A stretch of DNA of 32,000 bases from Crocinitomix sp. (GCA_047623705.1 JBLHOW010000002.1:30991-62990); one strand, 5' to 3'; counted from the first letter of the stretch, positions 5,994-30,651 are shown. Program-made: numbers and translations. Notes: a model not told the origin generated them from the letters alone.

Positions 5994-8612
5994 CTATTGT
6001 ACAATTATTTTTAGTGTCTCCTGGGAATCTGTTCTTATGATATAAACACCCTTTTTAAGGTCCGAAACATTAAATTGCTGCTGGTTTTTTCCAGTCATAA
6101 TTAAGGCCCCTTTTAAATCGTATAGTTTAAAATCAACAACTTTATTTAGCGTAACCAATTCACTTGCTGGATTTGGATATGCTGTTAATGGCGTTAAAAT
6201 TGTTACCGCTTCATTCAAGCCAGAAATATCATTATTGGCCAAAGGAGTAGGGTAGGTGAAACTTGAAAAAGTCTCACTGCCATTCGGATATCTTCCATAC
6301 GAATTATCAGTAGTAGTAACAGGATAACGTAGATTATCCATTTCTACTCCTTGCGGAGAGATTAAGAAAACCGTATCTATAATATTTGATAGTTTGAAGT
6401 TGACGTGATTATTCCCTTGATATGTTTCGTTGTCATGCCAGAAGATAAGGTAATCATTAGCTGGAATGATGAATTCATTTGGCAAAGCCCATTCAATTCC
6501 ATCTCTACGTAATTTGCAGCCTGATAAGTTAACAGCGTAAGCATTGGGATTGAAAAGTTCTAACCAATCATCATTTTGTCCAAAATTATCTTCTGAATAA
6601 TCTGCATTTGAAGGCATTAATTCATTGATAAGTACGGATTGATAATCATCATCTATCCCGAAGACAGCCGTATATGTAACTTCCGTAGATGGTACCCAAG
6701 AAATGGTGTCATTTGTTTCACCTGTCTCCATCCATTCAATAAATCGATACCCAGGTAAAGGCACAGCGATTAATGGTACCGCAACTGTGTTAATATAAAT
6801 CCCCGTCCAAGGGTAAATTCCGACTTCTACACCAGGTAAATTATTGTTAATCAATATTGAGTTCACTTTTACGCGTCCCATATTAACATCATTCACATCA
6901 ATAGTAACAGTGGTGGTATCATCTGGATATTCCCACTTTTCCATCATATGTTCACGCACTTTTCTTCCACGACGTTCAGCAAATAAATGCAATAAATCCC
7001 ATAATTCATTCCAACGACCAATACTTGGTGCTTCTTCATAGCGGTCTTCTAAATTTGATGCAAATGAAGGATAACGCCATCTTTCCGCGTTTTCAAATAT
7101 TTCTGGTGTTGTCATGGCATACATAGAATCCATTTTTGCATCCATTACTTCCGTTCGGAACCAAGAATTGGCTAAATCGTTCATACGATTGACGTATTTA
7201 ATTTTGAATTCATCACTGCCCAACATTCCTCTAAAAAATCTTGAATAAGAAGAGAAATCTCCACCTATAATCGTAGCGGCAGCAAGTGTGTTTACCGTAT
7301 AATGTGCATTAGCACAAGAGCCTCCAAAGGCACCATCTAAATCGTAAATAGCCCATCTAAACTTCCCGTCATGTCCTGCAGGTTTTGAAGGATCAAAGTC
7401 TCCATTCTTTCTCCAAATATTTACATTAGAATAAACCCAATCTTCATTACTTAAGAAAATCTCAGAAGCCATATAGTCAATATAATTGTCTACATCCATA
7501 CGATCTAAAACATAAGCATAGCTCGTTGGATCATTCATGTCATTGACATCAACAAAGCCTTCTAAATTTTTCATTTTCGCACTATCGGCTTCATGCCCAT
7601 TACCTTGAATATCATATTCCTGATCCAACATGGTAATATCATTGTCATCAATTCCATAAAGGTTTTGAATAAAATAACTGTCCATTCTCTCTTTTATAGA
7701 ATGAATTCCCCAATATTCTCCGTTAATAAATACGATTACATGCCTGAAATGCTGTTGTTCAACATTAACGCCTTTGGTCAACATATTCCCTAAGTCATCA
7801 CGTGGAAAACAATCTGGACGGTGACCGCCAGCTTTTAGTAGGATACGTTTGTATTTGTCAATTTCAGTATCTTCAAAAAACGGATATTTAAAGTTCTTTA
7901 TAGTATCCGTTTCACCATAAATTCGAAATGATTTCTTAGGTGCATGTCTACTTCCACCTCCATGAATTCTTGTTCTTGAATCTTGCGAAATAGCAATCTC
8001 ACCATTTTTGTCAATATACTCGAAGCTCATCATCTTTTCCCAGTCCGCTCCCTTTTGCTCGTAATTGCCATCTTCATGGTCGCCATAGACGTAGAAACCT
8101 CTAGCATTCGAAAATATATGTTCAAAATCCATTGCAATTGAAACAATTGGCATTGTATAGAGATCTGTTCCACTCGGATCAATTAAGAAAGTTTGAGTTA
8201 AAGTTGGACTTGGTGCAAAACCAGGTTTAAAAGCTTTGTAACGAATCACATTTGCTTTATATCCGTCAGTATAAGGAGGAACCCAGCCTCTGCTGCTAGC
8301 TCTGCCAGCACTATATGTCCCGTAGGGGTATGTTAAATTCGGGTTAGTGGGGATTAACGAAAACACATCTGGTCCGTCACCAATGTTATCCATTGTTATG
8401 GGACCAGTATAAAGATGGTCAGAAACCGTTGGATCATCTCCATTTAAAGTATAAAAAATGGATACTCCAGCTTCGATATGGGATAATTCTAAATTAACTG
8501 CACTCGTATAAACTCCAGCTTCAATACTGGGAGTTGGTGGTGCAAGTACCTGTGCCATGAGGGAAAAATTGGCGCAAATAAAAACGAGTAGTAAGGTGTA
8601 TTTTTTGTTCAT
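5994..8612 (-). CDS. CotH-family protein (atypical kinase fold family) with N-terminal chitobiase-C-like Ig motif, lamin-tail domain and T9SS CTD
   Basis: The track start at 8618 is a TTG; the ATG two codons downstream (8612) gives MNKKYTLLLVFICANFSLMAQ (signal peptide). FYTLNGDDPT motif resembles the chitobiase/hexosaminidase C-terminal domain. Central HGGGSRHAPKKSFRIY, GEYWGIHSIKERMD and AIYDLDGAFG resemble CotH (PF08757-type). INELMPSN...NDDWLELFNPN resembles LTD. The end AYPNPASELVTL...GVYIIRT...KIIVQ fits the T9SS CTD. Confidence 0.8.
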   Translation of the reverse strand: MNKKYTLLLVFICANFSLMAQVLAPPTPSIEAGVYTSAVNLELSHIEAGVSIFYTLNGDDPTVSDHLYTGPITMDNIGDGPDVFSLIPTNPNLTYPYGTYSAGRASSRGWVPPYTDGYKANVIRYKAFKPGFAPSPTLTQTFLIDPSGTDLYTMPIVSIAMDFEHIFSNARGFYVYGDHEDGNYEQKGADWEKMMSFEYIDKNGEIAISQDSRTRIHGGGSRHAPKKSFRIYGETDTIKNFKYPFFEDTEIDKYKRILLKAGGHRPDCFPRDDLGNMLTKGVNVEQQHFRHVIVFINGEYWGIHSIKERMDSYFIQNLYGIDDNDITMLDQEYDIQGNGHEADSAKMKNLEGFVDVNDMNDPTSYAYVLDRMDVDNYIDYMASEIFLSNEDWVYSNVNIWRKNGDFDPSKPAGHDGKFRWAIYDLDGAFGGSCANAHYTVNTLAAATIIGGDFSSYSRFFRGMLGSDEFKIKYVNRMNDLANSWFRTEVMDAKMDSMYAMTTPEIFENAERWRYPSFASNLEDRYEEAPSIGRWNELWDLLHLFAERRGRKVREHMMEKWEYPDDTTTVTIDVNDVNMGRVKVNSILINNNLPGVEVGIYPWTGIYINTVAVPLIAVPLPGYRFIEWMETGETNDTISWVPSTEVTYTAVFGIDDDYQSVLINELMPSNADYSEDNFGQNDDWLELFNPNAYAVNLSGCKLRRDGIEWALPNEFIIPANDYLIFWHDNETYQGNNHVNFKLSNIIDTVFLISPQGVEMDNLRYPVTTTDNSYGRYPNGSETFSSFTYPTPLANNDISGLNEAVTILTPLTAYPNPASELVTLNKVVDFKLYDLKGALIMTGKNQQQFNVSDLKKGVYIIRTDSQETLKIIVQ

Positions 8613-8619
8613 AATCAAA

Positions 8620-9381
8620 TTAATTCATGTTCCTAAGTGAATAGAATAGTTCATTTTTCATCAATGATTTGATGTCTAACAAGAAGTTGGTGTCTTCCTC
8701 TATTCTATTACCAATTACAACTAAATCGGCACCAGCCCCCAAGGCGGTCTTTATATCTTCAATGGTTTTTAACCCCCCGCCGATAATTAATGGGATACTA
8801 ATATTTTTCTTTACAGCAGCAATCATCTCTCCGCTTACAGGCTTATCTGCTCCACTACCAGCATCCATAAAAAGTGCTTTTAATCCTAACATTTCGCCTG
8901 CAATCGCAGTCTTTACCGCTATTGTTATTTGATCTGCCGGAATAGGTGTGGTTTGGCTAACATATGAAACCGACGAAGTTTTGCCGCCATCTACTAATAA
9001 ATAACCAGTGGGGATTACTTCGAGATCCATTTTTTTTATCAAATGTGCCGATTCAATCTGGTGACCAATTAAAAAATCTGGATTCCTTCCAGAGATAAGT
9101 GTTAAAAATAATATTCCGTCTGCTTTAGCACTAATTTGTTGCGACGAGCCAGGGAATAGAATAACCGGTATATCACATTTAGCCTTGATGGCTGAAACAC
9201 AATTCTCGAAATCTACTGGATCTACCGTACTTCCACCAACAAATATAATTGCCGATTCGAGTGCTTCAATTTTTTTAATTAACGGATCTATATCTATAGC
9301 CGTATTAACCTTATCAGGGTCAACAAGAATTGCAATTTTCTTGTCATCACGTTTCAATATTTCATCCAAGGACAATTTCAT
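8620..9381 (-). CDS. geranylgeranylglyceryl/heptaprenylglyceryl phosphate synthase family protein (PcrB/GGGPS)
   Basis: 253 aa with no signal peptide. IIFVGGSTV, LFPGSS and C-terminal PLIIGGGLKT...GAGADLVVIGN phosphate-binding motifs are typical of the PcrB/GGGPS TIM-barrel family. Its ATG overlaps the upstream stop (TAATG at 9379-9383), and its stop lies 7 nt before the CotH ATG. Confidence 0.8.
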   Translation of the reverse strand: MKLSLDEILKRDDKKIAILVDPDKVNTAIDIDPLIKKIEALESAIIFVGGSTVDPVDFENCVSAIKAKCDIPVILFPGSSQQISAKADGILFLTLISGRNPDFLIGHQIESAHLIKKMDLEVIPTGYLLVDGGKTSSVSYVSQTTPIPADQITIAVKTAIAGEMLGLKALFMDAGSGADKPVSGEMIAAVKKNISIPLIIGGGLKTIEDIKTALGAGADLVVIGNRIEEDTNFLLDIKSLMKNELFYSLRNMN

Positions 9382-10601
9382 TAATTGAAAATGAATTTTT
9401 GCGTATTAAAAATTACCTTATTGTGCATGATATTCAAAAAGTAAATTCCATTTCCAAAATCAGACTTATAAATTTTTAATGCAGAGTTGAGTCCTTGGCT
9501 TTCAAAAATGACCCTACCAGTTATATCTGTAATTTGAACCGATAATTGGTTTTGTAATTCCGTTGGGATTTCCGCAGCTATAGTTATAACATCCGAAGAG
9601 GGGTTAGGGTAAAGATTGATCTGAACTTCGTTTAAAAAAGTTTCTTCAATTGAAGCTGTTGGCGCGAAAGCCCATAAATCTTTAAAATTTGTACCGTCTG
9701 TTCCCCCAGCAATATATGGAATGTCATCTATAACGAAAGTAACCGCATAACGTCTTTTGGCGCCACTAAAATCACCGATTTGTGTCCAAGTGTCCGCGTC
9801 AAAATCATACTCCCAAATGTCACGGAAATCATTTCCTAAATTATCGTTTCCAGTTCCAATATATCCTTTACCGTCAATCGCAAATGCCATTGCGTCTTGT
9901 CGAATTGGTCCACCCACGCTGGCTTTCACTGTCCAAATATTAGTTGATGGATCGTATTCATAAAAGTCACTCAATGCTAGGCCAATCATATGTCCGGTTC
10001 CAACATATCCTTTGGAGCCATTTGTAAAACTTACTGAAGCACTTCTAGGTTCTCCAGGAAATTCAGCTAATTCTATCCAAGCATCTGTTGTGGGATTGTA
10101 GGAGAAGAAATCAGTACGATATCCGTCATCTGATTGCCCCGTACCAAAATAACCTATACCATCAATTGTAAAGGCAGTTCCACCCCGCCTTTCAATAGCA
10201 GGTAAGTCTGCAACAGGGAACCATGTGTTTACTTCAGGTACATATTTCCACCAATCATTCGTATAAGAATGACTTCCATTTTCTCCACAACCTACATAGG
10301 CTGAATTACCAATGGTGAATGCACTAGAATGATAGCGCAAGCCACCACCAAAATTTGCAATTTGAGTCCATGAATTTGTTGCCGGATCATATTCCCAATA
10401 ATCTTGATAGGTTATCGCAGTTCCAGAATTAATATGCCCGCCACCATAATAGCCTTTATTTCCAATCTCAAATGCCGTACATCTGTGTCTGGCATCTCCA
10501 CCAATGTGTGCTTTTTGATGCCAGAACCTACTGACAGCGCTGGCTGTCTCTGGAAGAGCGGTTAAAGCTAAAAATAAGATGAAGCATTTAAGTAAATTCA
10601 T
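9381..10601 (-). CDS. Kelch-type six-bladed beta-propeller protein with T9SS CTD (406 aa)
   Basis: ATG at 10601; signal peptide ...PETASA. Six repeats of the form R..(a/s)(a/t)F(t/v)I(g/d)(n/g)kGY.G(t/g)G......D(f/w)W(e/k)Y(d/n)P.tn.W(t). The end INLYPNPSSDVITIAA...GIYFLNI fits the T9SS CTD. Confidence 0.85.
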   Translation of the reverse strand: MNLLKCFILFLALTALPETASAVSRFWHQKAHIGGDARHRCTAFEIGNKGYYGGGHINSGTAITYQDYWEYDPATNSWTQIANFGGGLRYHSSAFTIGNSAYVGCGENGSHSYTNDWWKYVPEVNTWFPVADLPAIERRGGTAFTIDGIGYFGTGQSDDGYRTDFFSYNPTTDAWIELAEFPGEPRSASVSFTNGSKGYVGTGHMIGLALSDFYEYDPSTNIWTVKASVGGPIRQDAMAFAIDGKGYIGTGNDNLGNDFRDIWEYDFDADTWTQIGDFSGAKRRYAVTFVIDDIPYIAGGTDGTNFKDLWAFAPTASIEETFLNEVQINLYPNPSSDVITIAAEIPTELQNQLSVQITDITGRVIFESQGLNSALKIYKSDFGNGIYFLNIMHNKVIFNTQKFIFN

Positions 10602-12841: not shown

Positions 12842-13276
12842 TCAATTGTATACTGTTACCGTATAAGCGCCATCCCAATAAGCGTTGTAGCGTCTTAATC
12901 CATATTGTGCTGGTCCAACTAGAACAACGCCGCTTAGAATACTGTATGTAGAACCGGAGCAAGTGTCAACCAATTCAAATGGATTGTCTGCGTTTACTTC
13001 AACAACTGCGCATTCATTTTCCGAATCATAAGTGGAATGTCTGTCTAAAGCTACAAACTCGTCAAAGTTGCGGTAAATTACAATTCCACGTGATCCTCCA
13101 TTTACATAAGCAAATCCTCCCGGCGAATTTAATGCGGTATATGACGGTAAATCTAAGTTCAAGCTGAGGTTGACAGGCAGATTTGGGATGGGGTAATCTT
13201 TTTCTTTACAATTTGTTAGAAATAAACTTGTAAAAAGTAGTCCGAATAAAAAGTATCTTAAATATATTTGTTGCAT
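12842..13276 (-). CDS. small lipoprotein, possibly a degenerate Rieske-fold domain (144 aa)
   Basis: ATG at 13276 gives MQQIYLRYFLFGLLFTSLFLTNC, a signal peptide plus lipobox Cys. The C-terminal half (IVIYRN.DEFVALDRHSTY...LVDTCSGSTYSILSGVVLVGPAQYGLRRY....G.YTVTV) has the spacing of a Rieske domain but lacks a full Cys/His ligand set. The 45-codon upstream extension in the track looks spurious. Confidence 0.6.
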   Translation of the reverse strand: MQQIYLRYFLFGLLFTSLFLTNCKEKDYPIPNLPVNLSLNLDLPSYTALNSPGGFAYVNGGSRGIVIYRNFDEFVALDRHSTYDSENECAVVEVNADNPFELVDTCSGSTYSILSGVVLVGPAQYGLRRYNAYWDGAYTVTVYN

Positions 13277-13565
13277 GGAGAAACGATTGTATAAAACTAT
13301 AACGAAAATAATCATAATTATTGCATCAATCATTGTAGTTCCCCAAAATGGGTTTTTGCAGGACCGAGGAGCGAAGAGTGTTAAGTCAGGAGATAAGGGG
13401 AGTAAAGGCAAGCGCGTTAAGAGTACCTACAAGAAGCAAAAAAGAACACGAAAGAAACATTGGAAAAACCAAGACAAAGCAACGCGTAAAAGAATGAAAC
13501 GTGCAGCAAAAAACGCTAGAAGACGTCAAAAGGGGAAGCCCATGAAGAATAATAGACTGGTATAA
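13275..13565 (+). CDS. possible small membrane-anchored polybasic protein (96 aa)
   Basis: MEKRLYKTITKIIIIIASIIVV is a hydrophobic N-terminus. It is followed by a tail in which 27 of the last 56 residues are K/R (KGSKGKRVKSTYKKQKRTRKKHWKNQDKATRKRMKRAAKNARRRQKGKPMKNNRLV). I recognise no homologue, and its ATG overlaps the divergent lipoprotein ATG, so it may be non-coding. Confidence 0.35.
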   Translation: MEKRLYKTITKIIIIIASIIVVPQNGFLQDRGAKSVKSGDKGSKGKRVKSTYKKQKRTRKKHWKNQDKATRKRMKRAAKNARRRQKGKPMKNNRLV

Positions 13566-13738: not shown

Positions 13739-16700
13739 ATGCTTAAAAAACTAAAATTATTACTTGCAATACTCTTTCTTTCAGTGAGTTCAAGTTTTGC
13801 TCAAACAGGTACCGGATCTATTAAAGGTACCGTAAAAGACAAAACTTCGGGTGAAGGCTTGCCATTTGTGAAAGTTGTTGCTTTCCAAGGTGGCCAACAA
13901 AAGGGTTATGCACAAACAGATTTTGATGGAAAATTTAAAATTTCATCTTTACCTCCAGGCGAATATGCTGTAGAGGTTCGTTTTGTTGGTTATACATCAA
14001 TTCGGAAAGAAGGAGTTTTGGTGAACTCTGATAAATTAACAAGCTTACCGCTTGAATTAGCCACTTCTGACGAAATGTTAGATGTTGTAGAGGTAACTTA
14101 TTATGAAGTTCCTTTAATTGATAAAGATGGTGGTGCTTCTGGAGCGGTTGTTACACGTGACGATATCTCTAAGATGCCAACGCGATCTGCTGCTGGTATT
14201 GCTGCCACAGTTGGTGGTGTTTATCAAGCTGAAGGAGATGGTGACCAGTTGAGTATTCGTGGGGCGCGATCAGATGCGACTTATTATTATATTGATGGTA
14301 TTAAGGTAAGGGGTTCTTCTTCATTACCAAAATCTGCAATACAAGAGGTTGCTGTAATTACTGGAGGGGTTCCTGCAAATTATGGTGATTTGACTGGTGG
14401 AATTATCTCAATTACAACACGTGGGCCTTCAGCCAAATATTTTGGATCAATTGAAGCAGTAACATCTGGCTTTTATTTTAATGGTCAGGATCCAATTGGA
14501 TATGACGGTAAAGTAATTGGTTTAGATAAATATGCCTACAACTTACTTGAAGGATTGATTTCTGGTCCTATCTTAATGAAGAGAGATTCTTCTGGAAGAC
14601 CAACAAAACCTCGTTTAGGGTTTTTCCTATCAGCTAACTATACAGACGTTATAGATAGCAGACCATTGTCTGGTGGTGGCGGATACCGTATCAAACAAGG
14701 AGTTAGAGATTCATTAATTGCAAATCCCTTACGTCCAACAGGACAAGAAGGTGGTGGAGCTTATTATAACGCAGATTTCTTAAGACATTCAAGTGATCCT
14801 GAATTATCGGATTTCGAACAAGTGCCTTGGAGAATGAACGCAAGAGGGACTTCTTTCTCAGCAGCTGGTAAGATTGATGTAAACGCAGGACCAAACATTA
14901 ACTTAACGTTTGGTGGTAACATGGCATATAACAATAGAACTAATTATAGTTATAGCAATTCATTATTCAATTTTGAGAATTTCGGAAAAGAACGAAGTAT
15001 TGATTGGAGAGTATATGGTAGGTTTACACAACGTTTTAATAATAATCAAGAAGGTTCATCTTCTAAAATTAAAAGTGCATACTATTCATTAATGGTAGAT
15101 TACTCTCAATCTCATAATAGACTTTGGGATGCGAATCACGAAGATCGTCTATTTAACTACGGACATGTAGGGAAATTTGAAACTTTCAGAGAAACAACGT
15201 ATGAATTCAACACAAACAGTGATAGTTTAGTTCATAACGGTTTCAGAGATACAATAGTAATATTTACGCCTTCTACGAATAACGCGGCATTCGCATCAAT
15301 CACAGAACAGTATTTCGATATTTATGCTGGAAATCCATTCGGTAATTATGAAAACCTTTTCCAAATTGAGCAAGGAAACGCACTAAGAAATGGTGATCTT
15401 CCCCAAAGTGTTTATGGAATTTGGAGCAACGTTGGTACTCCGTCTAACAATTATAGAACGAGACAAAGAGATCAATTCCGTATTACAGGTTCAGGTACAA
15501 TTAACTTAAATGACCATGCAATTTCATTAGGATTTGAGTACGAGCAAAGATGGGATAGATCATTCCAGTCTGCAAGACAGGGACCAATAGGACTTTGGAC
15601 AATTGCACGTCAGTACATGAATAGCCACATTGAGGAGTTAGATCAAAGCAAGTCTTCATTTGATTATTATGGAACTTTCCCAAGAATTACCTACGAGCGT
15701 TTAAATGCTTCTGAAGGTGAGTTTGGTGGACAAGAAAATGATGACGCACAGTATTTCTTTGATTATAACGTAAGAAATAAATTAGGACTTGATCCTGATG
15801 GAACTGATTATATCGATATTGATGCTTTGGATCCTGATTTCTTTACATTAGATATGTTTAGTGCAGATGAACTATTGAATTCAGGTAATAACTTCTTTAC
15901 TTGGTTTGGATATGATCACACTGGAGAAAAAGTTAAGGGGAATACAGATATCAATAAATACTTCAACGAATTCAATAGCGACCAAAACTACGCAAGAACG
16001 ATTGGTGCTTTCCAACCAATTTATATCTCTGGATATATAATGGATAAGTTTGCATTTGATGATATTATTTTCAATGTTGGTTTACGTGTAGATGTATTTG
16101 ATGCTAACCAACCAGTATTGAAAGATAAATACTTATTGTATGAAGCTAAGACTGTACAAGAAGTATCAGAATTTGATAACGGAACGGCGATTGAACATCC
16201 AGCTAATATGGGAGATGACTACGTAGTTTACGTGAATGATGTGGATAACCCAACTTCAATTAATGGATATAGAACAGGTGATACATGGTATGACGCTACA
16301 GGTGTTGAAGTATCGGATCCAACAGTATTAGAAGGTAGTAAAGGTATTGCACCTTGGTTACAAGATAATACGTTGACTACACCAAACGCTGATGCATTTG
16401 AAGATTATAAGCCGCAAATTAATGTAATGCCTAGGGTTGCGTTTTCATTCCCTATCTCAGATGAGGCATCTTTCTTTGCACATTATGACATCTTAACAAA
16501 ACGACCTACAACTGGAAATAGATTTGATCCAATTCAATATCAATTCTTACAAGATCGTAACCTAGTTGTGAATAACCCGAATTTAAAACCGGAAAAAACA
16601 ATTGATTACGAATTAGGTTTCCAACAAGTATTAACGAAAACTTCATCTTTAAAAATATCTGCTTTCTATAAAGAGCAAAGAGATCAAGTACAGTTAGTGA

Positions 16701-17479
16701 ATGTATTCTCAGCATATCCGAATACTTACCGTTCATATGGTAACAGAGATTTCGGAACGGTGAAAGGATTAACTGTTTCATACGACTTAAGAAGAACAAA
16801 GAACATTAGAATGACTGCTTCTTATACGCTTCAATTCGCAAATGGTACTGGTTCTGATGCCAATTCAGCACTTACTTTAGTGAACTCAGGTGAGCCGAAC
16901 TTAAGAACTATTTTCCCATACACTTATGATCAAAGACACGGTTTCAACGTTGTGTTTGATTATAGATACGGAGATGGTAAAGATTATAACGGACCGGTTA
17001 TCGGAGACTTTGGTGTATTAGAAAACACAGGGTTGAACGTTGTAACTCAAATTGGATCAGGTACACCTTACTCAGGATATAAGCAAGCAGCTGGTGAAGC
17101 ATTATTATCTGCTGGTTCTTCACAGTTAGATGGATCATTGAACGGTTCAAGAAAACCTTGGCAATACAGAGTTGATCTTCAATTGGACAGAAACATCATG
17201 TTAGAATTCGGAGATGATGAGAACAAGAAAAAATCAGCTTATTTGAATGTGTATGTACGTGTTACCAACATATTTAACATTGTAAACGTATTGAACGTTT
17301 ATAGAGCAACTGGTAACCCTGATGATGACGGTTATTTAGCGGCATCTCAATTCCAAGCATCTATCCAAAATCAATTGGATGAGCAATCTTTTAGAGATTT
17401 CTATGCGTTGAAGGTTCAAAACCCTTTCAACTTAGGAATTCCGAGAACGATTAGATTAGGTGTTAAATTTGACTTTTAA
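13739..17479 (+). CDS. oversized TonB-dependent-receptor-like outer membrane protein (CarboxypepD_reg domain + plug + large beta-barrel, 1246 aa)
   Basis: Signal peptide MLKKLKLLLAILFLSVSSSFAQ. GSIKGTVKDKTSGEGLPFVKVVAF...GKFKISSLPPGEYAVEVRFVGY resembles the carboxypeptidase-regulatory-like domain. VVTRDDISKMPTRSAAGIAATVGGV...LSIRGARSDATYYYIDGIKV resembles the plug. The remainder is long, alternating and Gly/aromatic-rich, and ends ...IRLGVKFDF (terminal Phe, an OMP signature). Confidence 0.85.
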   Translation: MLKKLKLLLAILFLSVSSSFAQTGTGSIKGTVKDKTSGEGLPFVKVVAFQGGQQKGYAQTDFDGKFKISSLPPGEYAVEVRFVGYTSIRKEGVLVNSDKLTSLPLELATSDEMLDVVEVTYYEVPLIDKDGGASGAVVTRDDISKMPTRSAAGIAATVGGVYQAEGDGDQLSIRGARSDATYYYIDGIKVRGSSSLPKSAIQEVAVITGGVPANYGDLTGGIISITTRGPSAKYFGSIEAVTSGFYFNGQDPIGYDGKVIGLDKYAYNLLEGLISGPILMKRDSSGRPTKPRLGFFLSANYTDVIDSRPLSGGGGYRIKQGVRDSLIANPLRPTGQEGGGAYYNADFLRHSSDPELSDFEQVPWRMNARGTSFSAAGKIDVNAGPNINLTFGGNMAYNNRTNYSYSNSLFNFENFGKERSIDWRVYGRFTQRFNNNQEGSSSKIKSAYYSLMVDYSQSHNRLWDANHEDRLFNYGHVGKFETFRETTYEFNTNSDSLVHNGFRDTIVIFTPSTNNAAFASITEQYFDIYAGNPFGNYENLFQIEQGNALRNGDLPQSVYGIWSNVGTPSNNYRTRQRDQFRITGSGTINLNDHAISLGFEYEQRWDRSFQSARQGPIGLWTIARQYMNSHIEELDQSKSSFDYYGTFPRITYERLNASEGEFGGQENDDAQYFFDYNVRNKLGLDPDGTDYIDIDALDPDFFTLDMFSADELLNSGNNFFTWFGYDHTGEKVKGNTDINKYFNEFNSDQNYARTIGAFQPIYISGYIMDKFAFDDIIFNVGLRVDVFDANQPVLKDKYLLYEAKTVQEVSEFDNGTAIEHPANMGDDYVVYVNDVDNPTSINGYRTGDTWYDATGVEVSDPTVLEGSKGIAPWLQDNTLTTPNADAFEDYKPQINVMPRVAFSFPISDEASFFAHYDILTKRPTTGNRFDPIQYQFLQDRNLVVNNPNLKPEKTIDYELGFQQVLTKTSSLKISAFYKEQRDQVQLVNVFSAYPNTYRSYGNRDFGTVKGLTVSYDLRRTKNIRMTASYTLQFANGTGSDANSALTLVNSGEPNLRTIFPYTYDQRHGFNVVFDYRYGDGKDYNGPVIGDFGVLENTGLNVVTQIGSGTPYSGYKQAAGEALLSAGSSQLDGSLNGSRKPWQYRVDLQLDRNIMLEFGDDENKKKSAYLNVYVRVTNIFNIVNVLNVYRATGNPDDDGYLAASQFQASIQNQLDEQSFRDFYALKVQNPFNLGIPRTIRLGVKFDF

Positions 17480-17513: not shown

Positions 17514-20500
17514 ATGAAGAAGCTATTATTAAGTATTTTAGTGTTAGGGCTGACGAACGTGATGTATGCCTACAAATTAGAAGGACATCTCGGACCAAGG
17601 GGTGATTCTGACTCTGAGTCTCGTGCGGCAGGATGTTCTCCAGCTAATGAGAAGATTTTCATGGAGTTCAACAATATTAGAGCATTGGTGGAAACTGGTG
17701 GATCTCTATGGCAAGACCGTTCTAACGGACGCTCTTCTTATGAATATCCAAAAGACAGTAGAAATCATGTAATCTATTCAGGAGCACTTTGGATGGGTGG
17801 TGAAGACATTAACGGTCAATTGAAATTGGCTGCACACATGTTCCGCCAAGGAAATGATTTTTGGCCTGGACCTTTAGGAGATTTAATTTCCGGTACAGGT
17901 AATTACAATCCATTTATTCCTCAAAATGCAGATGCAACATTAGTAAGAGATTACGGTGCAGCTGAGATTTTCACAGGAGAATGTACTAAATATGACAAGT
18001 TTTTCTCAATCAGAAAGAGTGAAGTTATTCAATTCATTACATGGTGGAAATGTGATAATGGTGTAAGTGATCCTGAAGATTGTGAAGAAGTTGAACGTCC
18101 AAGCGAAGAAATTCTAGACAAAATTAGAAACTGGCCAGCACATGGTGATGAGTCATTAGGTCAAGATTTCTATTTAGCTCCTTTCTATGATAATACAAAA
18201 GAAGGTGAAACACCAAATGGAATTTATGATCCAATAAATGATGGAGATTACCCTTGGTATGATGTTGAAGAAGAAATTGATTGTAGAAATGACAGACGTG
18301 TAACACTTTTTGGTGATGAAACGCATTGGTGGGTATTTAACGATAAAGGAAATATTCACACAGAGTCTGGTGGAGATCCAATTGGTATGGAGATTCGTGC
18401 GCAAGCATTCTCTTTCGCTACAGATGACGAAATCAATGACATGACTTTCTATAACTATGAGTTAATCAATAGAGGTACTCAAACATTATATGAAACTTAC
18501 TTTGGTCAGTGGTGTGATGCTGATTTAGGTTACGGATTGAATGATGATGATTATATTGGTTGTGATGTTGGTAGAGGTTTAGGTTACTGTTATAATGGTG
18601 ATTTAAATGATGAAGGTGGTGGAAACCAACCAGGTTATGGTGCAAACCCTCCTGCTGTAGGTATTGACTTCTTTGAAGGACCATATTTAGATAATGATAA
18701 CATAGATAATCCATTATATAGAGCAGAGGCAGAAGGTGATTTACCAGCGGTATTATTACCTGAAGTATTTGCAAATGACGGTATTCCTTACCCAGGTTTA
18801 GGAATTGGATACGGTGATGGTGTTGTAGATAATGAGCGTTTTGGAATGCAACGATTTGTATATCACGAACGTGATCCAGGTGCTTACGGAGATCCAAGTT
18901 CAGCGGCAGATTTCTATAACTACTTAAGAGGTATATGGAAAAATGGATTAAACATGCAATGGGGTGGTAACGGAAACACAAGTGGTTCTGGAGTTCCAAC
19001 TAAATTTATGTATCCAGATGATTCCGATCCATTAGGATGGGGAACTTATCCTACACCACTTCCTTCTTCGGATCCATGGTCAGAAATTAGCGTAGGAAAC
19101 CCTAAAGGGGATAGAAGATTCTTACAATCTGCTGGTCCGTTTATCTTACGTCCAGGAGCTGTAAATAATATTACTGTTGGAGTTGTAATTGGTCAAAGTA
19201 GTGAGTCTGATCTTGAAGCACCGATTAGAGCTTTAAAAACTGCGGATACTAAAGCACAAGCTTTATTCGATAATTGTTTCGAATTAGTTGAGCCGCCATT
19301 AGCGCCAGTATTGACTATTCAGGAAATGGAAAACCAATTGATCCTTTTCTTAACAGATCCTGCAATTGTTGAATCTTTAGAATCTTATGAAGAAGAAGAT
19401 AATATCAATATTATTACTCCAGATGAATTAATCGCAATGGGTATCTTCTATGATAACATATATCGTTTCGAAGGATTCCAAGTTTATCAAATGGTTGATG
19501 ATTTAGCTTCAATTACTGAACTTTCAGACCTTTCTAAAGCACGTCTAGTTGGACAATCTGATTTAGAAAATGGAATTGGAAAATTAGTTAACTATACATA
19601 TGACGAAGAATTAGATATTTCGATTCCTGCAGTTATGGTAGAAGCAGCTGGAGAATTTGATTTAGATAAAGGTTTACGTCGTTCATTCTCAGTAACTGAA
19701 GATTTATTTGCTACTGGTGACAGAACGTTAGTTAACCATAAGAAATACTATTTCTTGGCTGTTTCTTATGCTTATAATCAATATAAAGAATACGATCCAA
19801 ATGATCCAACTTTATTAGATGGTCAAAAGAACCCTTACTTACGTTCAAGAATTTCTGCAACAGGTGCAGGTATTGAATCTGTAGTGGGTATTCCGCATGA
19901 TCCATCTCCTGAGGCAGACGGTAGAGTGTTTACTACTTCTTACGGATTCCAACCAGAAATTACACAAATTGAAGGTGAAGGAAACGGTGGTACATTCTTA
20001 GAATTGACAACTGCAACTGTAACAGATATTTTAGCAAACAATCAAATTGATCATCCTACTTACCAAAGTGGTGCTGGACCAATTGACATTAAAGTTGTTG
20101 ATCCATTAAACTTAAAAGGTGGAGCATATACGTTAGGATTTGTTACTGATTCAAGTGAGATTGATGAAACAACTTGGTGGCTAGAAAAATTCGCTGATGA
20201 TGAAAGAGACACAGTATGGTCTGATGGAGCAATCAATGTTGTGAGAGAACAATTGATCTTAGATTGGGGTATTTCAGTTCAAATCAATCAACGGTATTAT
20301 ACAAATGCTGGTGTAAATGCTTTTACTGAGCCAATTGGAGCTTCAATTGATTTTGCAGATTCTTCTAAAATGTGGGTGAGTTTTGTTCAAGATGATGATG
20401 CTTTCTATCCTAGTAACTGGATTCGTGTAGGTAACAGTGAAGAAGCAAATAATCATGCGACTGATCCAAACCCTAGTTGTATAGCTGATAGCTGGATTTA

Positions 20501-21734
20501 TCAACCATGTCATTATGATGATGGTGGACTAGATGCAACTGATCAATTATACGAGCAATTGCTTGACGGTGGAATTGCACCATTTAAATTTGTTGCAAAG
20601 GCGCCTTACGGAAGTCCATTCGGATTCCCAGGAGAGAATACAAATACACCTTGGTATGAGTCGAATCAAAGTTGGTTTACATCTGCTTCTTCAGTTCAGA
20701 ATCAAATTTCAATGGTTGATTTGCATAGTGTTGATATCATCATTACTGCTGATAAATCGAAATGGACAAGATGTCCTGTATTGGAAATCAATAATATTGA
20801 AGTTCAAACGGAACATGGAGATCAAGTAATCACTCCAAGATCTGACGCTTCTGTTGGAAAAGATGGTTTACCTGATGGAGATGGTACTGGTATGGGTTGG
20901 TTCCCTGGGTATGCAATTGACATCATCACGGGAACTAGATTGAACATGGCATTTTCTGAGAACTCTTGGTTAAAAGGAGACAACGGAGATGATATGATTT
21001 GGAATCCTACTTCAAGCATGGTTGATAATTCTGGAGCACCATTATTCGGAGGAATGCATTATGTATATGTGTTCGGAAATAATACAGCAGGAGTTGATGA
21101 AGCACCGGCGTATGATGGAGGAAATTGGTTAAGAGGGATGATGGATGTTTCTGTATCGAATAGTGAACGTAACAACAATTACCGTAACCTTTGGAAAACA
21201 TGCTATTGGGTTATGGAACCAGTTTTAACGTTTGGACAAGAATTGTTATCGTCTGATGTTAAAATCAGTGCGCGTATCAATAAGCCTTATGAAGAGCGTG
21301 AAGTGAATGGTGAAAACGAAGGATACCCTCTTTACCAATTCAGTTTCGATAATCCTTCAATTGTTGGTAATGGAGATCGTTTAACTTCTGTACTAGACAA
21401 TATTAATATCGTACCTAACCCTTACTATGCTTATAGCGAGTATGAGACTGGGAAAAGAGATAATAGAGTTAAAGTAACAAACCTTCCTGAAAGATGTGAA
21501 GTAACGATCTTTAACATGCAAGGTGCTTTAGTTAGAAATTATGTGAAAGATGATCCTTTAACATCAGTTGATTGGGATTTGAAAAATCACTCAGGAATTC
21601 CTATTGCAGGTGGATTATACATTGTGCACATTAAGATTGAAATTCCAGATAGTGAAACTGGTGCGATCGTTGAGCATGAGAAAATCCTTAAATGGTATGG
21701 TGTATTAAGAACGCCAGACTTGGATAACTTGTAA
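17514..21734 (+). CDS. giant secreted protein of unknown function, copy 1 (1406 aa), with T9SS-CTD-like C-terminal domain
   Basis: ATG 34 nt after the receptor stop; signal peptide MKKLLLSILVLGLTNVMYA. Conserved Cys pattern and blocks such as HWWVFNDKGNIHTESGGDPIGMEIRAQAFSF, NDMTFYNYELINRGTQTL and DDYIGCDVGRGLGYCYN. The C-terminal end is IVPNPYYAYSEYE...VTNLPERCEVTIFNMQGALV...GGLYIVHIKI. I cannot name any catalytic or Pfam domain by eye. Confidence 0.85.
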   Translation: MKKLLLSILVLGLTNVMYAYKLEGHLGPRGDSDSESRAAGCSPANEKIFMEFNNIRALVETGGSLWQDRSNGRSSYEYPKDSRNHVIYSGALWMGGEDINGQLKLAAHMFRQGNDFWPGPLGDLISGTGNYNPFIPQNADATLVRDYGAAEIFTGECTKYDKFFSIRKSEVIQFITWWKCDNGVSDPEDCEEVERPSEEILDKIRNWPAHGDESLGQDFYLAPFYDNTKEGETPNGIYDPINDGDYPWYDVEEEIDCRNDRRVTLFGDETHWWVFNDKGNIHTESGGDPIGMEIRAQAFSFATDDEINDMTFYNYELINRGTQTLYETYFGQWCDADLGYGLNDDDYIGCDVGRGLGYCYNGDLNDEGGGNQPGYGANPPAVGIDFFEGPYLDNDNIDNPLYRAEAEGDLPAVLLPEVFANDGIPYPGLGIGYGDGVVDNERFGMQRFVYHERDPGAYGDPSSAADFYNYLRGIWKNGLNMQWGGNGNTSGSGVPTKFMYPDDSDPLGWGTYPTPLPSSDPWSEISVGNPKGDRRFLQSAGPFILRPGAVNNITVGVVIGQSSESDLEAPIRALKTADTKAQALFDNCFELVEPPLAPVLTIQEMENQLILFLTDPAIVESLESYEEEDNINIITPDELIAMGIFYDNIYRFEGFQVYQMVDDLASITELSDLSKARLVGQSDLENGIGKLVNYTYDEELDISIPAVMVEAAGEFDLDKGLRRSFSVTEDLFATGDRTLVNHKKYYFLAVSYAYNQYKEYDPNDPTLLDGQKNPYLRSRISATGAGIESVVGIPHDPSPEADGRVFTTSYGFQPEITQIEGEGNGGTFLELTTATVTDILANNQIDHPTYQSGAGPIDIKVVDPLNLKGGAYTLGFVTDSSEIDETTWWLEKFADDERDTVWSDGAINVVREQLILDWGISVQINQRYYTNAGVNAFTEPIGASIDFADSSKMWVSFVQDDDAFYPSNWIRVGNSEEANNHATDPNPSCIADSWIYQPCHYDDGGLDATDQLYEQLLDGGIAPFKFVAKAPYGSPFGFPGENTNTPWYESNQSWFTSASSVQNQISMVDLHSVDIIITADKSKWTRCPVLEINNIEVQTEHGDQVITPRSDASVGKDGLPDGDGTGMGWFPGYAIDIITGTRLNMAFSENSWLKGDNGDDMIWNPTSSMVDNSGAPLFGGMHYVYVFGNNTAGVDEAPAYDGGNWLRGMMDVSVSNSERNNNYRNLWKTCYWVMEPVLTFGQELLSSDVKISARINKPYEEREVNGENEGYPLYQFSFDNPSIVGNGDRLTSVLDNINIVPNPYYAYSEYETGKRDNRVKVTNLPERCEVTIFNMQGALVRNYVKDDPLTSVDWDLKNHSGIPIAGGLYIVHIKIEIPDSETGAIVEHEKILKWYGVLRTPDLDNL

Positions 21735-21768
21735 GATATTTAAAGTATTAATTTGAAATTCATTGAAA

Positions 21769-22845
21769 ATGAAAGTAAATAAATTAATTAAAAACACATT
21801 CTTAGCAACAGTAGCACTCGGTTTGAGCAGTGCAGCTTTTGCTGGAAATGGTGATAGAGTTGGTTCTGCGGGAGCAACTGAATTACTCATCAATCCATGG
21901 GCACGAAGTGCTGCTTGGGGAGATGCTGGAGTGTCTTGTGCAAATGGTATTGATGCTGTTTTTACAAATATTGCTGGTCTTGCCTTTACAGAAAAGACAC
22001 AAATTCGCTTTGACAGAACAAATTGGCTTGGTGGAGCAGGAATTAATATTAATTCAGCAGGTTTCGCTCAACGAATCTCTGAAAGTAGTGTGATTTCAGT
22101 AACAGTAATGGCCATGACTTTTGGCGATATTGATATTACAACAGTTGATTTACCTGAAGGTGGAATCGGAACGTATTCACCGACGTATTCAAACTTTAAT
22201 GTTGGATATGCACGTGAATTCTCGAATTCTATTTATGGAGGAATCAATTTCAAAGTAATTTCTGAATCTATTGCAGATTTAAAAGGTACTGGAGTAGCAA
22301 TTGATGCTGGAATTAGATATGTAACTGGAGAAGAAGATCAAATGAAATTCGGTATTACATTAAAAAATATCGGGCCAACAATGAGCTTCAATGGTGATGG
22401 TCTTGGACAACAAGTACTATATCCTGGTTCTGGTGACCTTGCAACTTTAGAGCAAAGATCGGCTACGTTTGAGATGCCATCTTTACTTGCAATTGGTGGA
22501 TCATATGATTTTAACTTCACCGAAACAAATAAATTAACGTTAGCCTTAGCGTTCTCTGCAAATTCTTTTTCAAATGATCAATTCCGTATCGGAGTAAATT
22601 ATGGAATGGAATTAGAGAAAGCAAGATTTAACTTAATGGCTGGTTATGTTTATGAATCAGGCATCCTTCAATCTAACTTTGGATACCGTGAGCGTGTAAC
22701 TGCATTAAGCGGTTTAACAGCTGGTGTATCAGTAGATGCAGTTGTTGGAAAAAGTAAGAGTATGTTAGGTATTCAATATGGCTTCCGTCTTACTGAAAAT
22801 TTCGGAAACATACATACAATTGGATTATCAATAGAGATTTTATAG
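21769..22845 (+). CDS. PorV/PorQ-family (FadL-like) outer membrane beta-barrel protein
   Basis: The track start at 21763 is a TTG; the ATG at 21769 gives MKVNKLIKNTFLATVALGLSSAAFA (signal peptide). The mature N-terminus GNGDRVGSAGATELLINPWARSAAWGDAGVSCANGIDAVFTNIAGLAF matches the G.(s/a)GA.fL.i....Ra.a(m/l)G.A..A...d..a...NpAGLA signature of the PorV/PorQ (UPF0164-like) family. The rest has alternating beta-strand character. Confidence 0.7.
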   Translation: MKVNKLIKNTFLATVALGLSSAAFAGNGDRVGSAGATELLINPWARSAAWGDAGVSCANGIDAVFTNIAGLAFTEKTQIRFDRTNWLGGAGININSAGFAQRISESSVISVTVMAMTFGDIDITTVDLPEGGIGTYSPTYSNFNVGYAREFSNSIYGGINFKVISESIADLKGTGVAIDAGIRYVTGEEDQMKFGITLKNIGPTMSFNGDGLGQQVLYPGSGDLATLEQRSATFEMPSLLAIGGSYDFNFTETNKLTLALAFSANSFSNDQFRIGVNYGMELEKARFNLMAGYVYESGILQSNFGYRERVTALSGLTAGVSVDAVVGKSKSMLGIQYGFRLTENFGNIHTIGLSIEIL

Positions 22846-22853
22846 AAGTATTA

Positions 22854-22901
22854 CTTATTCCGCCATCCTTACTAATGCGAACGTAAGGATGGCTGAGTAA
22901 G
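22854..22901 (+). terminator. strong hairpin 9 nt after the PorV/PorQ-like stop (terminator-like, but no U-tract)
   Basis: The core is an 11-bp perfect stem, GCCATCCTTAC (22862-22872) / GTAAGGATGGC (22883-22893), with a 10-nt loop. It extends by 7 further pairs (22854-22860 / 22895-22901, one G-U) after one mismatch. It is followed by GAGTTAAAAAC, not a T-run. Confidence 0.5.
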
Positions 22902-28543: not shown

Positions 28544-29671
28544 TTATTTTTTCTTCTTCTTTTTGTCGTCTTTCTTATCGTCGTTAGTCGGAACAACTGC
28601 TTTCTTCTCATCTTCCAATTCGCCCTTCTCAATTTTCTTTACCATTAATTTACCCGTAGCATTATCGACATAAGCTGTGTAAATAATATTACGATATTCA
28701 CAAGATGCTAATGATTTAGCTTTCTTATCAGAAAGGTTATTGACTGCACCCCAAACTCCTCTTTTATTGTTTTTAAGGTATTGTGGAATACCAGTACTAC
28801 TTAAAGAAGTGAAGAAATAGTATTCAGAAATATTTAAATTATAATTGGCTTTACCCAATTCAAATGGAGCTTCAGCATCTGCAGCATCTTCAATAGTTTC
28901 CCATTTTTTTGCTAAATCTTCTAAAGAAATAATAACAGGACCAGTTGTGGTAGAATAAGTTATATAAGCCTTGTTCTCAATAAATTCAAAATCATCAATT
29001 CTTGCTATATCTTCCAATTTGATTTTTTTTGTCAAATCCTTCCACTCATTCATGTCTTCAATCAATTGGTCAACTTCTTTAATGAGAATACCTTCTGCAT
29101 CCATCACCGCCATGTACAAATCACCACGAAAATTTGCCGCAAGTTTATAAGACTTTACGCCTTCAATTGGCATAACGTCAACATCATACCACGTTTCATC
29201 TAAAAGCGAAAACATACGAATCATTTCATAGTCCTTGTCTTCAAAAAGAATATATGGTTCTTCTCCAATTACAGAAAATTCTGGATTAGTTACATTTCCA
29301 GTACCAAAATCTTCTTCACCAACAAATTCCCATTTATCATCAATTGCTCTAATTACAGACATTTTATCGTCATAATAACAAAAAACATAAGGAACTGCTT
29401 TGTAAGCAAAAATTTCAAGCGCTTTCAATTTGAAAATGCCTTCAATTGGTGTTTGATCAAACTCTTCCCATTTCCCTCTATAGAAACGCCTTACCCTTAA
29501 TTTCCCATCCTCTACGGAGGCAACATGAATGGATCGGCCTACTTCCTCAATGTCTATTTTATCTAATACTGTATTGTCAGAAACATAGCCACCGCCATAT
29601 TCTTCCACGATTTGAGAATTTGCATTTATAAAGCTAAAGCTTAAAATCAATGCGAATAAAATCTTTTTCAT
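28544..29671 (-). CDS. secreted repeat protein of unknown function with poly-Lys/Asp C-terminal tail (375 aa)
   Basis: I prefer the ATG at 29671 (MKKILFALILSFSFINANSQ, signal peptide) to the track start at 29719. Recurrent ~45-55-aa units end in a Trp motif (GKWEEF, DKWEFVG, ETWYDV, NEWKDL, KKWETI, GVWGAV). The tail is EDEKKAVVPTNDDKKDDKKKKKK. Confidence 0.7.
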   Translation of the reverse strand: MKKILFALILSFSFINANSQIVEEYGGGYVSDNTVLDKIDIEEVGRSIHVASVEDGKLRVRRFYRGKWEEFDQTPIEGIFKLKALEIFAYKAVPYVFCYYDDKMSVIRAIDDKWEFVGEEDFGTGNVTNPEFSVIGEEPYILFEDKDYEMIRMFSLLDETWYDVDVMPIEGVKSYKLAANFRGDLYMAVMDAEGILIKEVDQLIEDMNEWKDLTKKIKLEDIARIDDFEFIENKAYITYSTTTGPVIISLEDLAKKWETIEDAADAEAPFELGKANYNLNISEYYFFTSLSSTGIPQYLKNNKRGVWGAVNNLSDKKAKSLASCEYRNIIYTAYVDNATGKLMVKKIEKGELEDEKKAVVPTNDDKKDDKKKKKK

Positions 29672-29843
29672 TTCTATTTTTTTTTCGAAGATAATTAAAA
29701 TACTTAAAATTGAGTTCATCCCAATTTTGTTTTACACAGTATCTGGTCTGAAATAGACGTAAAAGTTCAATTGTAATTTACTTATAATTCTGAACAGACA
29801 CTACTTTCTTTAAAACCCTAATTGCAATCGTCATACCAAACTG

Positions 29844-30602
29844 CTATAAGTCGCTCCGCTTCTTGAATATGTCTTCAAAATTTGGTTTCTTATATTTGGA
29901 TAGTTTACAAATCAATTCGTTTTCTAACGTTATTGTTAATTGAGATTTTGAATAAGTTTTAACACGACTCGTATTCACCAACCAAGATTTATGCGATCTG
30001 AAAAATGTGTCGTTTTCGCCCAACAAGTTTTCAAAATGCTTTAAATTTTTACTCACCATATATTTTTCACCGTTCATTAAGTGGATGGTCGAATAGGCCT
30101 CCTTCGCTTCAAAAGCCAAAATAGATGAGATTGAAATTATTTTTTGAGATCCTGAATGAGGAATAATAATTTTAGTTAGGGACGGACTGTTTATATTCTC
30201 TTTTAAAGCCGTGTATGATTTATGGGAGTTTGTTCGATTTTGTTTTTCCGCAAATCGCTCAACTGAAAGTTTCAATCGCTCAATTGTAACAGGCTTTAAC
30301 AAATAGTCCACCGCTGAAACTTCAAACGCTTTAATGGCATATTGATCGTAGGCCGTAACAAAAATAATTTCAAAATCTATTTCATCAAAAAATGAAACGA
30401 TTTCATACCCCGCATAATTAGGCATCTCAATGTCAAGAAAAACCAATGCCGGTTTATGTTTTTTAATGGACTCAACAGCCTCTTTTAATCCTTTGCATTT
30501 ATCTACTATGCGCAGTTGTGGACAATAGCGTAGAACTAATCCAGATAAAATCTCCCTTGCACTTCTCTCGTCATCAACAATAATTGCGTCGTGTGTGGTC
30601 AT
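29844..30602 (-). CDS. two-component response regulator, receiver + LytTR DNA-binding domain
   Basis: AIIVDDE...ALVFLDIEMP...FVTAY...A....DYLLKP is a receiver domain with the phospho-acceptor Asp. The C-terminal half (I..I.AFEA...Y..IH....KY.V...L..FE..L....FFR.HKS.LVN) is LytTR-type. Confidence 0.9.
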   Translation of the reverse strand: MTTHDAIIVDDERSAREILSGLVLRYCPQLRIVDKCKGLKEAVESIKKHKPALVFLDIEMPNYAGYEIVSFFDEIDFEIIFVTAYDQYAIKAFEVSAVDYLLKPVTIERLKLSVERFAEKQNRTNSHKSYTALKENINSPSLTKIIIPHSGSQKIISISSILAFEAKEAYSTIHLMNGEKYMVSKNLKHFENLLGENDTFFRSHKSWLVNTSRVKTYSKSQLTITLENELICKLSKYKKPNFEDIFKKRSDL

Positions 30603-30651
30603 TTGTTAACTTGTTTTGTGTGTCTTATAATTAATGTCGGTGTATACTCAA

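Follow-up and report, generated by a model that had tools for sequence, protein, structure and literature searches.

A 32,000-nucleotide stretch of Crocinitomix sp. DNA (GCA_047623705.1 JBLHOW010000002.1:30991-62990; hereafter the window) encodes a 1406-residue protein, which we call BIG, whose gene is linked, with operon-like spacing and in different orders, to those of an outer-membrane (OM) β-barrel protein of the PorV/PorQ family and to a TonB-dependent transporter-like protein. BIG carries a type IX secretion system (T9SS)-type C-terminal domain (CTD), which is atypical and resembles those of PorU and PorZ, and it is not a member of the PorU, PorZ or SusD-like families or of any glycoside hydrolase (GH) family, because one defining feature of each was tested and is lacking in BIG. 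We infer that BIG keeps its CTD, docks by it on the adjoining barrel and is the extracellular ligand-capturing partner of the transporter, a composite reading to which we assign a probability of about 0.4. The conserved three-gene context, which was absent from the original prediction made for this gene by a model reading the DNA, is in our judgment the most informative feature of the locus. The genes and elements concerned are the following:

13739..17479, + strand: TonB-dependent transporter-like OM protein of 1246 residues, with CarboxypepD_reg and Plug domains and a long barrel ending in ...KFDF
17514..21734, + strand: BIG, ATG start, 1406 residues, a predicted T9SS-exported protein of an unannotated family
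21763..22845, + strand: PorV/PorQ-family OM β-barrel of 360 residues, starting 28 nt after BIG, assigned by hidden Markov models (HMMs) and an orthologue profile
22862..22893: stem-loop with a perfect 11-bp stem (gCCATCCTTAC...GTAAGGATGGc), a 10-nt loop and no T-run, 17 nt past the barrel stop codon
23225..27466, + strand: BIG2, the paralogue of BIG, 1413 residues, 66% identical to BIG over its full length, after a 379-nt spacer

Reading and translating the frame returned the 1406-residue open reading frame as the original prediction described it, and every conserved block quoted there is found in both BIG and BIG2, whose CTDs are 80% identical. Paired copies on a single contig also occur in seven related assemblies. 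To judge from its relatives, BIG is a genuine gene and no chance open reading frame, because a homologue search recovered more than 5,648 homologues in 90% clusters and an exhaustive HMMER scan (query residues 30–1229) of 1.84 billion cluster representatives returned 6,310 clusters at 50% identity with E ≤1e-3, and 1,619 with E ≤1e-30. Among the matches listed, most relatives have 1,300–1,500 residues, and those that are shorter align with only a part of the query. Our literature searches found no paper describing the BIG family or the PorV-like/TonB cassette.

The named members of the family belong to the Crocinitomicaceae, to other Flavobacteriales and to the Chitinophagaceae, with further metagenome-assembled genomes (MAGs) labeled Sphingobacteriales, Bacteroidales or Bacteroidia, and the nearest genome is that of an uncultured Crocinitomix (L006, a MAG; 94% identity over the N-terminal half of BIG). 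The class is Bacteroidia for every named member apart from a few records with the proteobacterial labels Arenicella, Comamonadaceae and Luminiphilus, all of them MAG contigs, which we read as binning errors. Nine MAG records that contain the cassette are titled Chryseobacterium gleum, Comamonadaceae or Luminiphilus (L012, L023, L050, L051, L053, L055, L056, L067 and L079); their sequence content resembles that of Crocinitomicaceae, and the titles are probably taxonomic mislabels or binning contamination.

The upstream neighbor is a credible TonB-dependent transporter, to judge from its domains and motifs. Pfam detects CarboxypepD_reg at 58 bits, which exceeds its cut-off, and Plug at 39.3 bits (cut-off 23.9), and inspection finds a TonB-box-like strand ('LDVVEVTYY') before the plug and an aromatic end to the barrel in the terminal ...KFDF. 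A profile built from six orthologues matches the plugs of PqqU, YncD and PirA and a barrel segment of PhuR in the PDB, and NCBIfam yielded no match to the SusC/RagA model at E ≤1. The downstream neighbor belongs to the PorV/PorQ family by NF033709 (PorV_fam), which it matches at 145.2 bits against a cut-off of 90, and it falls under the equivalog cut-offs for PorV (69.6 bits, cut-off 250), PorQ (70.1 bits, cut-off 220) and PorV2 (44.8 bits, cut-off 325). The Pfam PorV model scores 32.6 bits, and the orthologue profile of the barrel matches F. johnsoniae PorV (6h3i_F) with an E-value of 2.6e-11. We considered and rejected a PorV2 identity for this protein, its score being far under the NCBIfam cut-off; a literature lead in that direction gave nothing useful.

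Linkage was assessed by tblastn over 86 fetched loci, with subsets testable on the upstream side (71), the downstream side (53) or both (45). The transporter lies directly upstream of the BIG homologue in 54 of the 71 loci, the PorV-like barrel lies directly downstream in 41 of the 53, and both neighbors are present, across orders, in 36 of the 45. The transporter and BIG genes of the window are separated by 34 nt, and the intergenic gaps of the triad measure 9–100 nt in Crocinitomicaceae, in Chitinophagales (Polluticoccus soli) and in MAGs labeled 'Bacteroidales' and 'Bacteroidia'. In the window, BIG2 is followed by greA and then by a HIT gene, and genes arranged as transporter–BIG–barrel–greA–HIT are found again in Crocinitomix catalasitica, Putridiphycobacter, freshwater metagenomes, a 39%-identical relative, Polluticoccus soli and the 'Bacteroidales' MAG, while the 'Bacteroidia' MAG has the triad and lacks greA. 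No other degradative, SusD or regulatory gene of the kind found in polysaccharide utilization loci (PULs) was detected in the cassette.

The stem-loop behind the barrel gene may, from its sequence, be a Bacteroidota-type terminator that marks the end of the operon and parts the triad from BIG2. It was not listed by the consensus terminator scan, and scans of this kind for sigma-70 promoters and for terminators gave site numbers no higher than in shuffled sequence; Rfam and tRNA scans of the window returned nothing. On the other side of the triad, a small gene divergent from the transporter gene (12842-13411, − strand) encodes a predicted lipoprotein of ~144 residues, counted from an internal Met, with the lipobox LFLTNC and no Pfam match. 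We considered it as a fourth component and set it aside as probably not core, since same-position homologues occur in just seven of the fetched loci, one of them the 'Bacteroidales' MAG L087.

Along BIG itself we distinguish the following segments, all on the + strand:

17514..17573: Sec signal peptide, residues ~1–20, from inspection of the translation, no lipobox
17619..19283: N-terminal module, residues 36–590, β-rich, containing all the blocks quoted in the original prediction and many invariant Asp/Asn residues (AlphaFold2, conservation)
19284..21398: central body, residues 591–1295, β-sandwich-rich domains lacking a PDB counterpart (AlphaFold2)
20154..20708: least conserved stretch, residues 881–1065, mean identity 24% against 37–46% elsewhere
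20709..21143: most conserved segment of the body, residues 1066–1210, with invariant R1142, E1149, S1151, D1160, N1164 and H1182 (conservation)
21399..21731: atypical T9SS CTD, residues 1296–1406, seven predicted β-strands followed by a conserved tail (NCBIfam, PDB profile, Foldseek)

The sorting-like domain suggested at the C-terminus proved to be a T9SS CTD by HMM, PDB profile and Foldseek searches, with the qualification that it is atypical and falls under the type A cut-off. Seven strands are modeled over residues 1298–1396, and a seven-strand immunoglobulin (Ig)-like β-sandwich is how the type A fold is defined in PMC11285876. BIG combines this C-terminal sandwich, recognized by AlphaFold2 and Foldseek, with an N-terminus, MKKLLLSILVLGLTNVMYA, that reads on inspection as a Sec signal peptide devoid of a lipobox cysteine, and the homologue consensus has the same kind of start; together, the two features support the prediction that the protein is secreted. 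Foldseek aligns the CTD with PorZ (E 3.4e-5, 24% identity over 137 columns) and, at an E-value of 0.044, with the PorU structure 6za2. When all PDB chains were searched with phmmer and hmmsearch, the latter using a 96-sequence BIG family profile, the one relevant match was the CTD of PorZ (5m11, E 0.007), and the profile matched no PorU, SprA or β-barrel assembly machinery (BAM) chain. The type A model TIGR04183 scores 16.4 bits on whole BIG and 21.6 bits on the isolated CTD, under its cut-off of 23, and PF18962 scores 13.7 bits, under its cut-off of 27. As a control, we scanned the last 130 residues of six window proteins against NCBIfam, with these results:

BIG CTD: type A 21.6 bits, PorZ 28.4 bits, PorU 19.9 bits
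BIG2 CTD: type A 19.9 bits, PorZ 22.6 bits, PorU 24.1 bits
Four canonical cargo CTDs: type A 43–51 bits, PorZ one weak match of 23 bits, PorU none

The alignments to the PorU model (NF033707) are confined to its CTD, model positions 994–1095, and those to the PorZ model (NF052228) likewise to its CTD, positions 658–740. No region of BIG is better conserved than the CTD, whose mean identity among 33 diverse members, from which all regional identities were taken, is 46%, against 24–45% in the other regions. In six of eight same-contig paralogue pairs, too, the CTD comes out as the best conserved region (71–87% identity). Such conservation, as read from these alignments, would fit a maintained protein–protein interface better than a disposable signal.

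The remainder of the protein resembles little that is known. The claim that about 1250 residues belong to no known family is supported by Pfam, NCBIfam, PDB profile and Foldseek searches: ~1,290 residues have no match in Pfam, NCBIfam or PDB sequence and profile searches, and no confident match over most of the length, which would have overturned that claim, emerged from the HMM, PDB profile or Foldseek searches. Pfam found no family above cut-off on whole BIG, on 300-residue pieces or on the 33 diverse members taken singly, the sole sub-threshold matches being of C-terminal sorting-domain type, and NCBIfam likewise found nothing above cut-off on BIG, with sub-threshold matches limited to the extreme C-terminus. 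Neither database matched SusD on BIG.

AlphaFold2 half-models, for which 96 and 94 homologues were aligned, are β-rich with short helices and reach a predicted local distance difference test score of 93.2 and a predicted template modeling score of 0.92 for residues 30–600, and 91.5 and 0.88, respectively, for residues 590–1406. Foldseek searches with these models, as the original prediction had proposed, gave no confident match for most of the length, the exceptions being the CTD and weak matches of the N-terminal half to PDB entries (E 3e-6 to 1e-2, template modeling (TM) scores of 0.15–0.31, 6–11% identity). The element common to the latter is the N-terminal β-supersandwich of GH15-like, GH63, GH65, GH94 and GH116 enzymes, and the best matches for residues 30–600 were 9ju0 (E 3e-6), 6gh3 (E 2e-5) and GH116/GH63 enzymes (E ~1e-3 to 1e-2). 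The central body returned just generic Ig- and FN3-type matches, with E >0.01, against the PDB and BFVD, and the BFVD search contributed nothing further.

Residue conservation was taken from a 244-sequence alignment, which bears out the conserved cysteine pattern noted originally. Conservation reaches 99% at both C41 and C157, and cysteines co-occur across the family at C180/C190 (r = 0.96), C257/C588 (r = 0.81) and C989/C999 (r = 0.95). Because these pairs are gained and lost together, the proposed extracellular disulfides gain support at the level of sequence; in the N-terminal module they would be C41–C157, C180–C190 and C257–C588. C350 is 97% conserved and C359 occurs in 33% of members, both window copies included. 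The model places C350 in a predicted β-strand of an all-β region and C359 on the neighboring strand, and we take C359 as its probable partner.

The AHGDES and DETHWW blocks had been put forward, as speculation, as a metal or catalytic site, which is unlikely because H210 and H271 are poorly kept as His (in 63% and 31% of the 244 members, respectively); a His-based metal site was rejected on conservation. Four other histidines, H282, H795, H1182 and H1372, are conserved at 95–96%, and 74 polar or aromatic positions are conserved at ≥95%, many of them Asp or Asn in loops of the N-terminal half. A dense cluster of such positions spans residues 1078–1200 (T1078, W1084, R1142, E1149, S1151, D1160, N1164, H1182 and Y1200), and we consider it the leading candidate functional site. 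The segment that contains it, residues 1066–1210, bears the motifs DKSKWTRCPV, GMGWFPGYAID..TG.RLN..F.ENSW, NGDDMIWNPT and GG.HY.YVF.

The reading that we favor envisages the following sequence of events. BIG would be exported via Sec and the T9SS, because it has a signal peptide and a PorZ-matching CTD and because the window also contains a PorV-family gene and four canonical T9SS cargo genes. In ordinary type A cargo the CTD is cleaved off, whereas BIG would keep its own and attach by it, non-covalently, to the dedicated PorV/PorQ-family barrel whose gene follows immediately downstream, a barrel that BIG2 would share. Docking would hold the β-rich body, of ~150 kDa, at the cell surface, where BIG would capture a ligand, probably a glycan or another polymer, for the TonB-dependent transporter encoded immediately upstream. 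We suggest docking because of the precedents set by PorU and PorZ, T9SS proteins whose uncleaved CTDs stay bound to PorV and PorQ (PMC10202324), and by type B CTD proteins, which bind a PorP-like barrel encoded alongside and are thereby anchored at the surface (PMC9143113). Weak hints of binding come from the supersandwich resemblance and from insertions in two longer relatives. In P0257, whose whole length NCBI names 'YCF48-related', a BNR/YCF48-like insertion at residues 996–1104 of that protein appears, by reading rather than by mapping onto query coordinates, to fall inside the least conserved stretch of BIG (residues 881–1065). In P0237, a Big_9/cadherin-like domain is inserted at residues 768–821 of its own chain, which we read, likewise unmapped, as further upstream.

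Several observations weigh against this reading. The supersandwich similarity is weak (TM 0.2–0.3), and a ligand-binding site in BIG was not identified. The PorZ- and PorU-like scores of the CTDs lie far under the family cut-offs (22.6–28.4 bits against 260 for PorZ and 13.8–24.1 bits against 420 for PorU), and one canonical CTD of the window also matches PorZ at 23 bits. The same-contig paralogue pairs probably derive from one duplication, so that the six of eight in which the CTD is best conserved do not amount to six independent observations. Among the 45 loci testable on both sides, two have the transporter but another gene directly downstream, and seven hold orphan copies with unrelated neighbors, at least one of which is the second copy of a genome with the full cassette as well (L048 and L002, the same 6.9-Mb genome); an alternative conserved context was looked for among the neighbors of the orphans and not found. 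Finally, part of the triad linkage may reflect inherited gene order and not function, because the synteny with greA and HIT is conserved to nearly the same degree as the triad itself.

In one alternative, BIG would be a T9SS cargo enzyme of the ordinary sort but of new fold, polysaccharide-degrading or otherwise hydrolytic, whose products the transporter imports and for which the barrel is a dedicated export shuttle only. In its favor are the numerous acidic and polar residues that are invariant (N276, D277, E293, R1142, E1149, S1151, D1160 and H1182 among them), the faint likeness of the N-terminal half to domains of GH15, GH63, GH94 and GH116 enzymes, the transporter linkage and the NCBI name of type A sorting-domain protein carried by some homologues. 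However, the GH matches are confined to non-catalytic N-domains (TM ≤0.31), and the (α/α)6 catalytic barrel with the family catalytic acids, which defines GH15, GH63, GH65, GH94 and GH116, is absent from the BIG models. Pfam and NCBIfam moreover detect no GH, peptidase or other enzyme family and no catalytic motif in BIG, the cassette is devoid of other degradative or regulatory PUL genes, and the most conserved region is a CTD that is PorU/PorZ-like and not canonical. We regard the cargo enzyme as unlikely. A clan CD or sortase-like Cys/His enzyme, suggested by WPAHGDES ... IGCDVGRG, was rejected, given that H210 is His in 63% of members, that C350 lies in a β-strand near C359 and that no peptidase HMM or fold match was found.

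We consider it quite improbable that BIG is a structural surface coat or adhesin, S-layer-like, whose link to the transporter is inherited gene order only. A large, β-sandwich-rich extracellular protein that is probably stabilized by disulfides would suit that role, as would adhesin-type insertions in some relatives, orphan copies outside the cassette and tandem paralogues, the last being found also for TfsA and TfsB, named as T9SS S-layer proteins in PMC8869499. Yet BIG is non-repetitive, its high and even conservation with sharply invariant polar clusters is unusual for coats and adhesins, and the tight linkage to the transporter, with gaps of 9–41 nt, is kept across orders.

Least probable of all is that BIG and the barrel form an accessory module, for sorting or attachment, within the T9SS or OM biogenesis, a third pair like PorU–PorV and PorZ–PorQ that processes or positions a subset of cargo or OM proteins: the gene order, with a PorV-family barrel after a large CTD protein, mirrors porU–porV, the CTD scores best on PorZ and PorU, and the cassette is kept among the housekeeping genes greA, HIT and ahcY across orders, but the body of BIG has neither a C25 peptidase domain nor a β-propeller, its PDB profile matches PorZ in the CTD alone and PorU, SprA and BAM components not at all, the near-invariant C350 beside C359 in a β-strand looks structural and not catalytic, and a TonB-dependent transporter is not known to be part of any T9SS module. 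The BAM complex of Bacteroidota offers a further parallel to such a module, in that BamG, also a FadL/PorV-like barrel, holds the large surface protein BamH (PMC12578637). A BamH-like BAM component was itself rejected as an identity for BIG, BamH being a lipoprotein and the family profile matching no BAM chain in the PDB.

Returning to the reading of BIG as a docked, ligand-capturing partner, we hold it as a tentative and somewhat doubtful extension that the triad is an undescribed OM machine found throughout the class Bacteroidia, composed of a SusD-less TonB-dependent transporter, an extracellular partner of new multi-domain fold delivered by the T9SS, and a dedicated PorV-family barrel that keeps this partner in place through its retained CTD. 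Were this true, it would represent a third way to build surface uptake complexes, besides surface lipoproteins and anchoring by anionic lipopolysaccharide, and a new physiological role for PorV-like carriers; we hypothesize that T9SS carrier-type barrels may assemble permanent nutrient-uptake complexes and not merely shuttle cargo. With thousands of clusters, lengths of 1,300–1,500 residues and confident models, yet no domain annotation or solved relative, the family is among the larger blind spots in Bacteroidota surface proteins. Its members turn up commonly in MAGs and in metagenome assemblies named after aquatic and other environmental samples, and the substrate could for this reason matter for nutrient acquisition by these bacteria. 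Biochemistry is accessible because several cultured carriers exist, namely Crocinitomix catalasitica ATCC 23190, Wandonia haliotis JCM 16083, Paracrocinitomix mangrovi, Taibaiella soli and Polluticoccus soli.

The window contains further T9SS cargo genes, each with a Por_Secre_tail CTD (42–48 bits across the four genes between 1466 and 10601), all on the − strand:

1466-3604 and 3661-5976, − strand: paralogous pair of FG-GAP-repeat T9SS cargo proteins
5994-8618, − strand: T9SS cargo protein with CotH-kinase and lamin-tail domains
9381-10601, − strand: Kelch β-propeller T9SS cargo protein

Between these cargo genes lies a PcrB-family gene (8620-9381, − strand; geranylgeranylglyceryl or heptaprenylglyceryl phosphate synthase type), which occupies the same place in C. 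catalasitica (L001), where a similar CotH/PcrB/Kelch/ACPS/AdoHcyase arrangement precedes the cassette. A gene at 28544-29719 on the − strand encodes a protein of 391 residues that starts like a signal peptide, has a lysine-rich tail at its C-terminus, ...DDKKDDKKKKKK, and has no Pfam match. Downstream of the cassette, 29844-31995 on the − strand encodes a LytTR response regulator and a TPR-His_kinase sensor, and in another genome (L045, 2532-5754) a Y_Y_Y/His_kinase sensor and a LytTR regulator come directly before an orphan BIG copy; this neighborhood may be a coincidence or a regulatory link.

Among known systems, the closest parallels to BIG and its barrel are the PorU–PorV and PorZ–PorQ pairs of Porphyromonas gingivalis, in which a large T9SS surface protein sits by an uncleaved CTD on a 14-strand barrel of the PorV family (PMC10202324). 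The likeness lies in the BIG CTD, whose top scores come from the PorZ and PorU models and, among structures, from PorZ, and in the adjoining PorV/PorQ-family gene. The differences are that PorU has a C25 peptidase domain and PorZ a double β-propeller, neither of which is present in the BIG body, that the BIG cassette adds a TonB-dependent transporter and that its barrel is not PorV, PorQ or PorV2 by cut-off. The type B pairs SprB–SprF and PG1035–PorP follow the same genetic logic, the T9SS surface protein adjoining its cognate PorV-like barrel (PMC9143113), but the BIG CTD is type A-like and not type B/CHU_C, the barrel is of the PorV/PorQ and not the PorP/SprF branch, and the contact between BIG and its barrel is a predicted one. 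In the Bacteroidota BAM, the FadL/PorV-like 14-strand barrel BamG holds the large extracellular BamH through its loops (PMC12578637); BamH is a lipoprotein and not T9SS cargo, and the PDB profile search showed no sequence relation between it and BIG.

The likeness to the N-domains of GH15-like, GH63, GH65, GH94 and GH116 enzymes is the sole body-level structural match of BIG residues 30–600, and it amounts to partial resemblance and not membership, as those enzymes have an (α/α)6 barrel and BIG does not. With the SusC/SusD utilisomes, the BIG cassette shares a transporter with a carboxypeptidase-regulatory-like N-terminal domain that is co-encoded with a surface-exposed partner, and the proposed role in extracellular capture would be analogous. 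It differs in that BIG has a β-rich new architecture and no lipobox cysteine of the kind that marks SusD-like and surface glycan-binding lipoproteins beside a SusC/RagA transporter, in that its own transporter has no SusC/RagA match and in that the cassette lacks SusD, enzyme and regulator genes. The role proposed for BIG would thus be like that of SusD and surface glycan-binding proteins, with delivery by the T9SS and not as a lipoprotein. The anchoring of T9SS surface proteins through PorV-family barrels is known; what is apparently new here is an unannotated multi-domain body and its linkage to a transporter.

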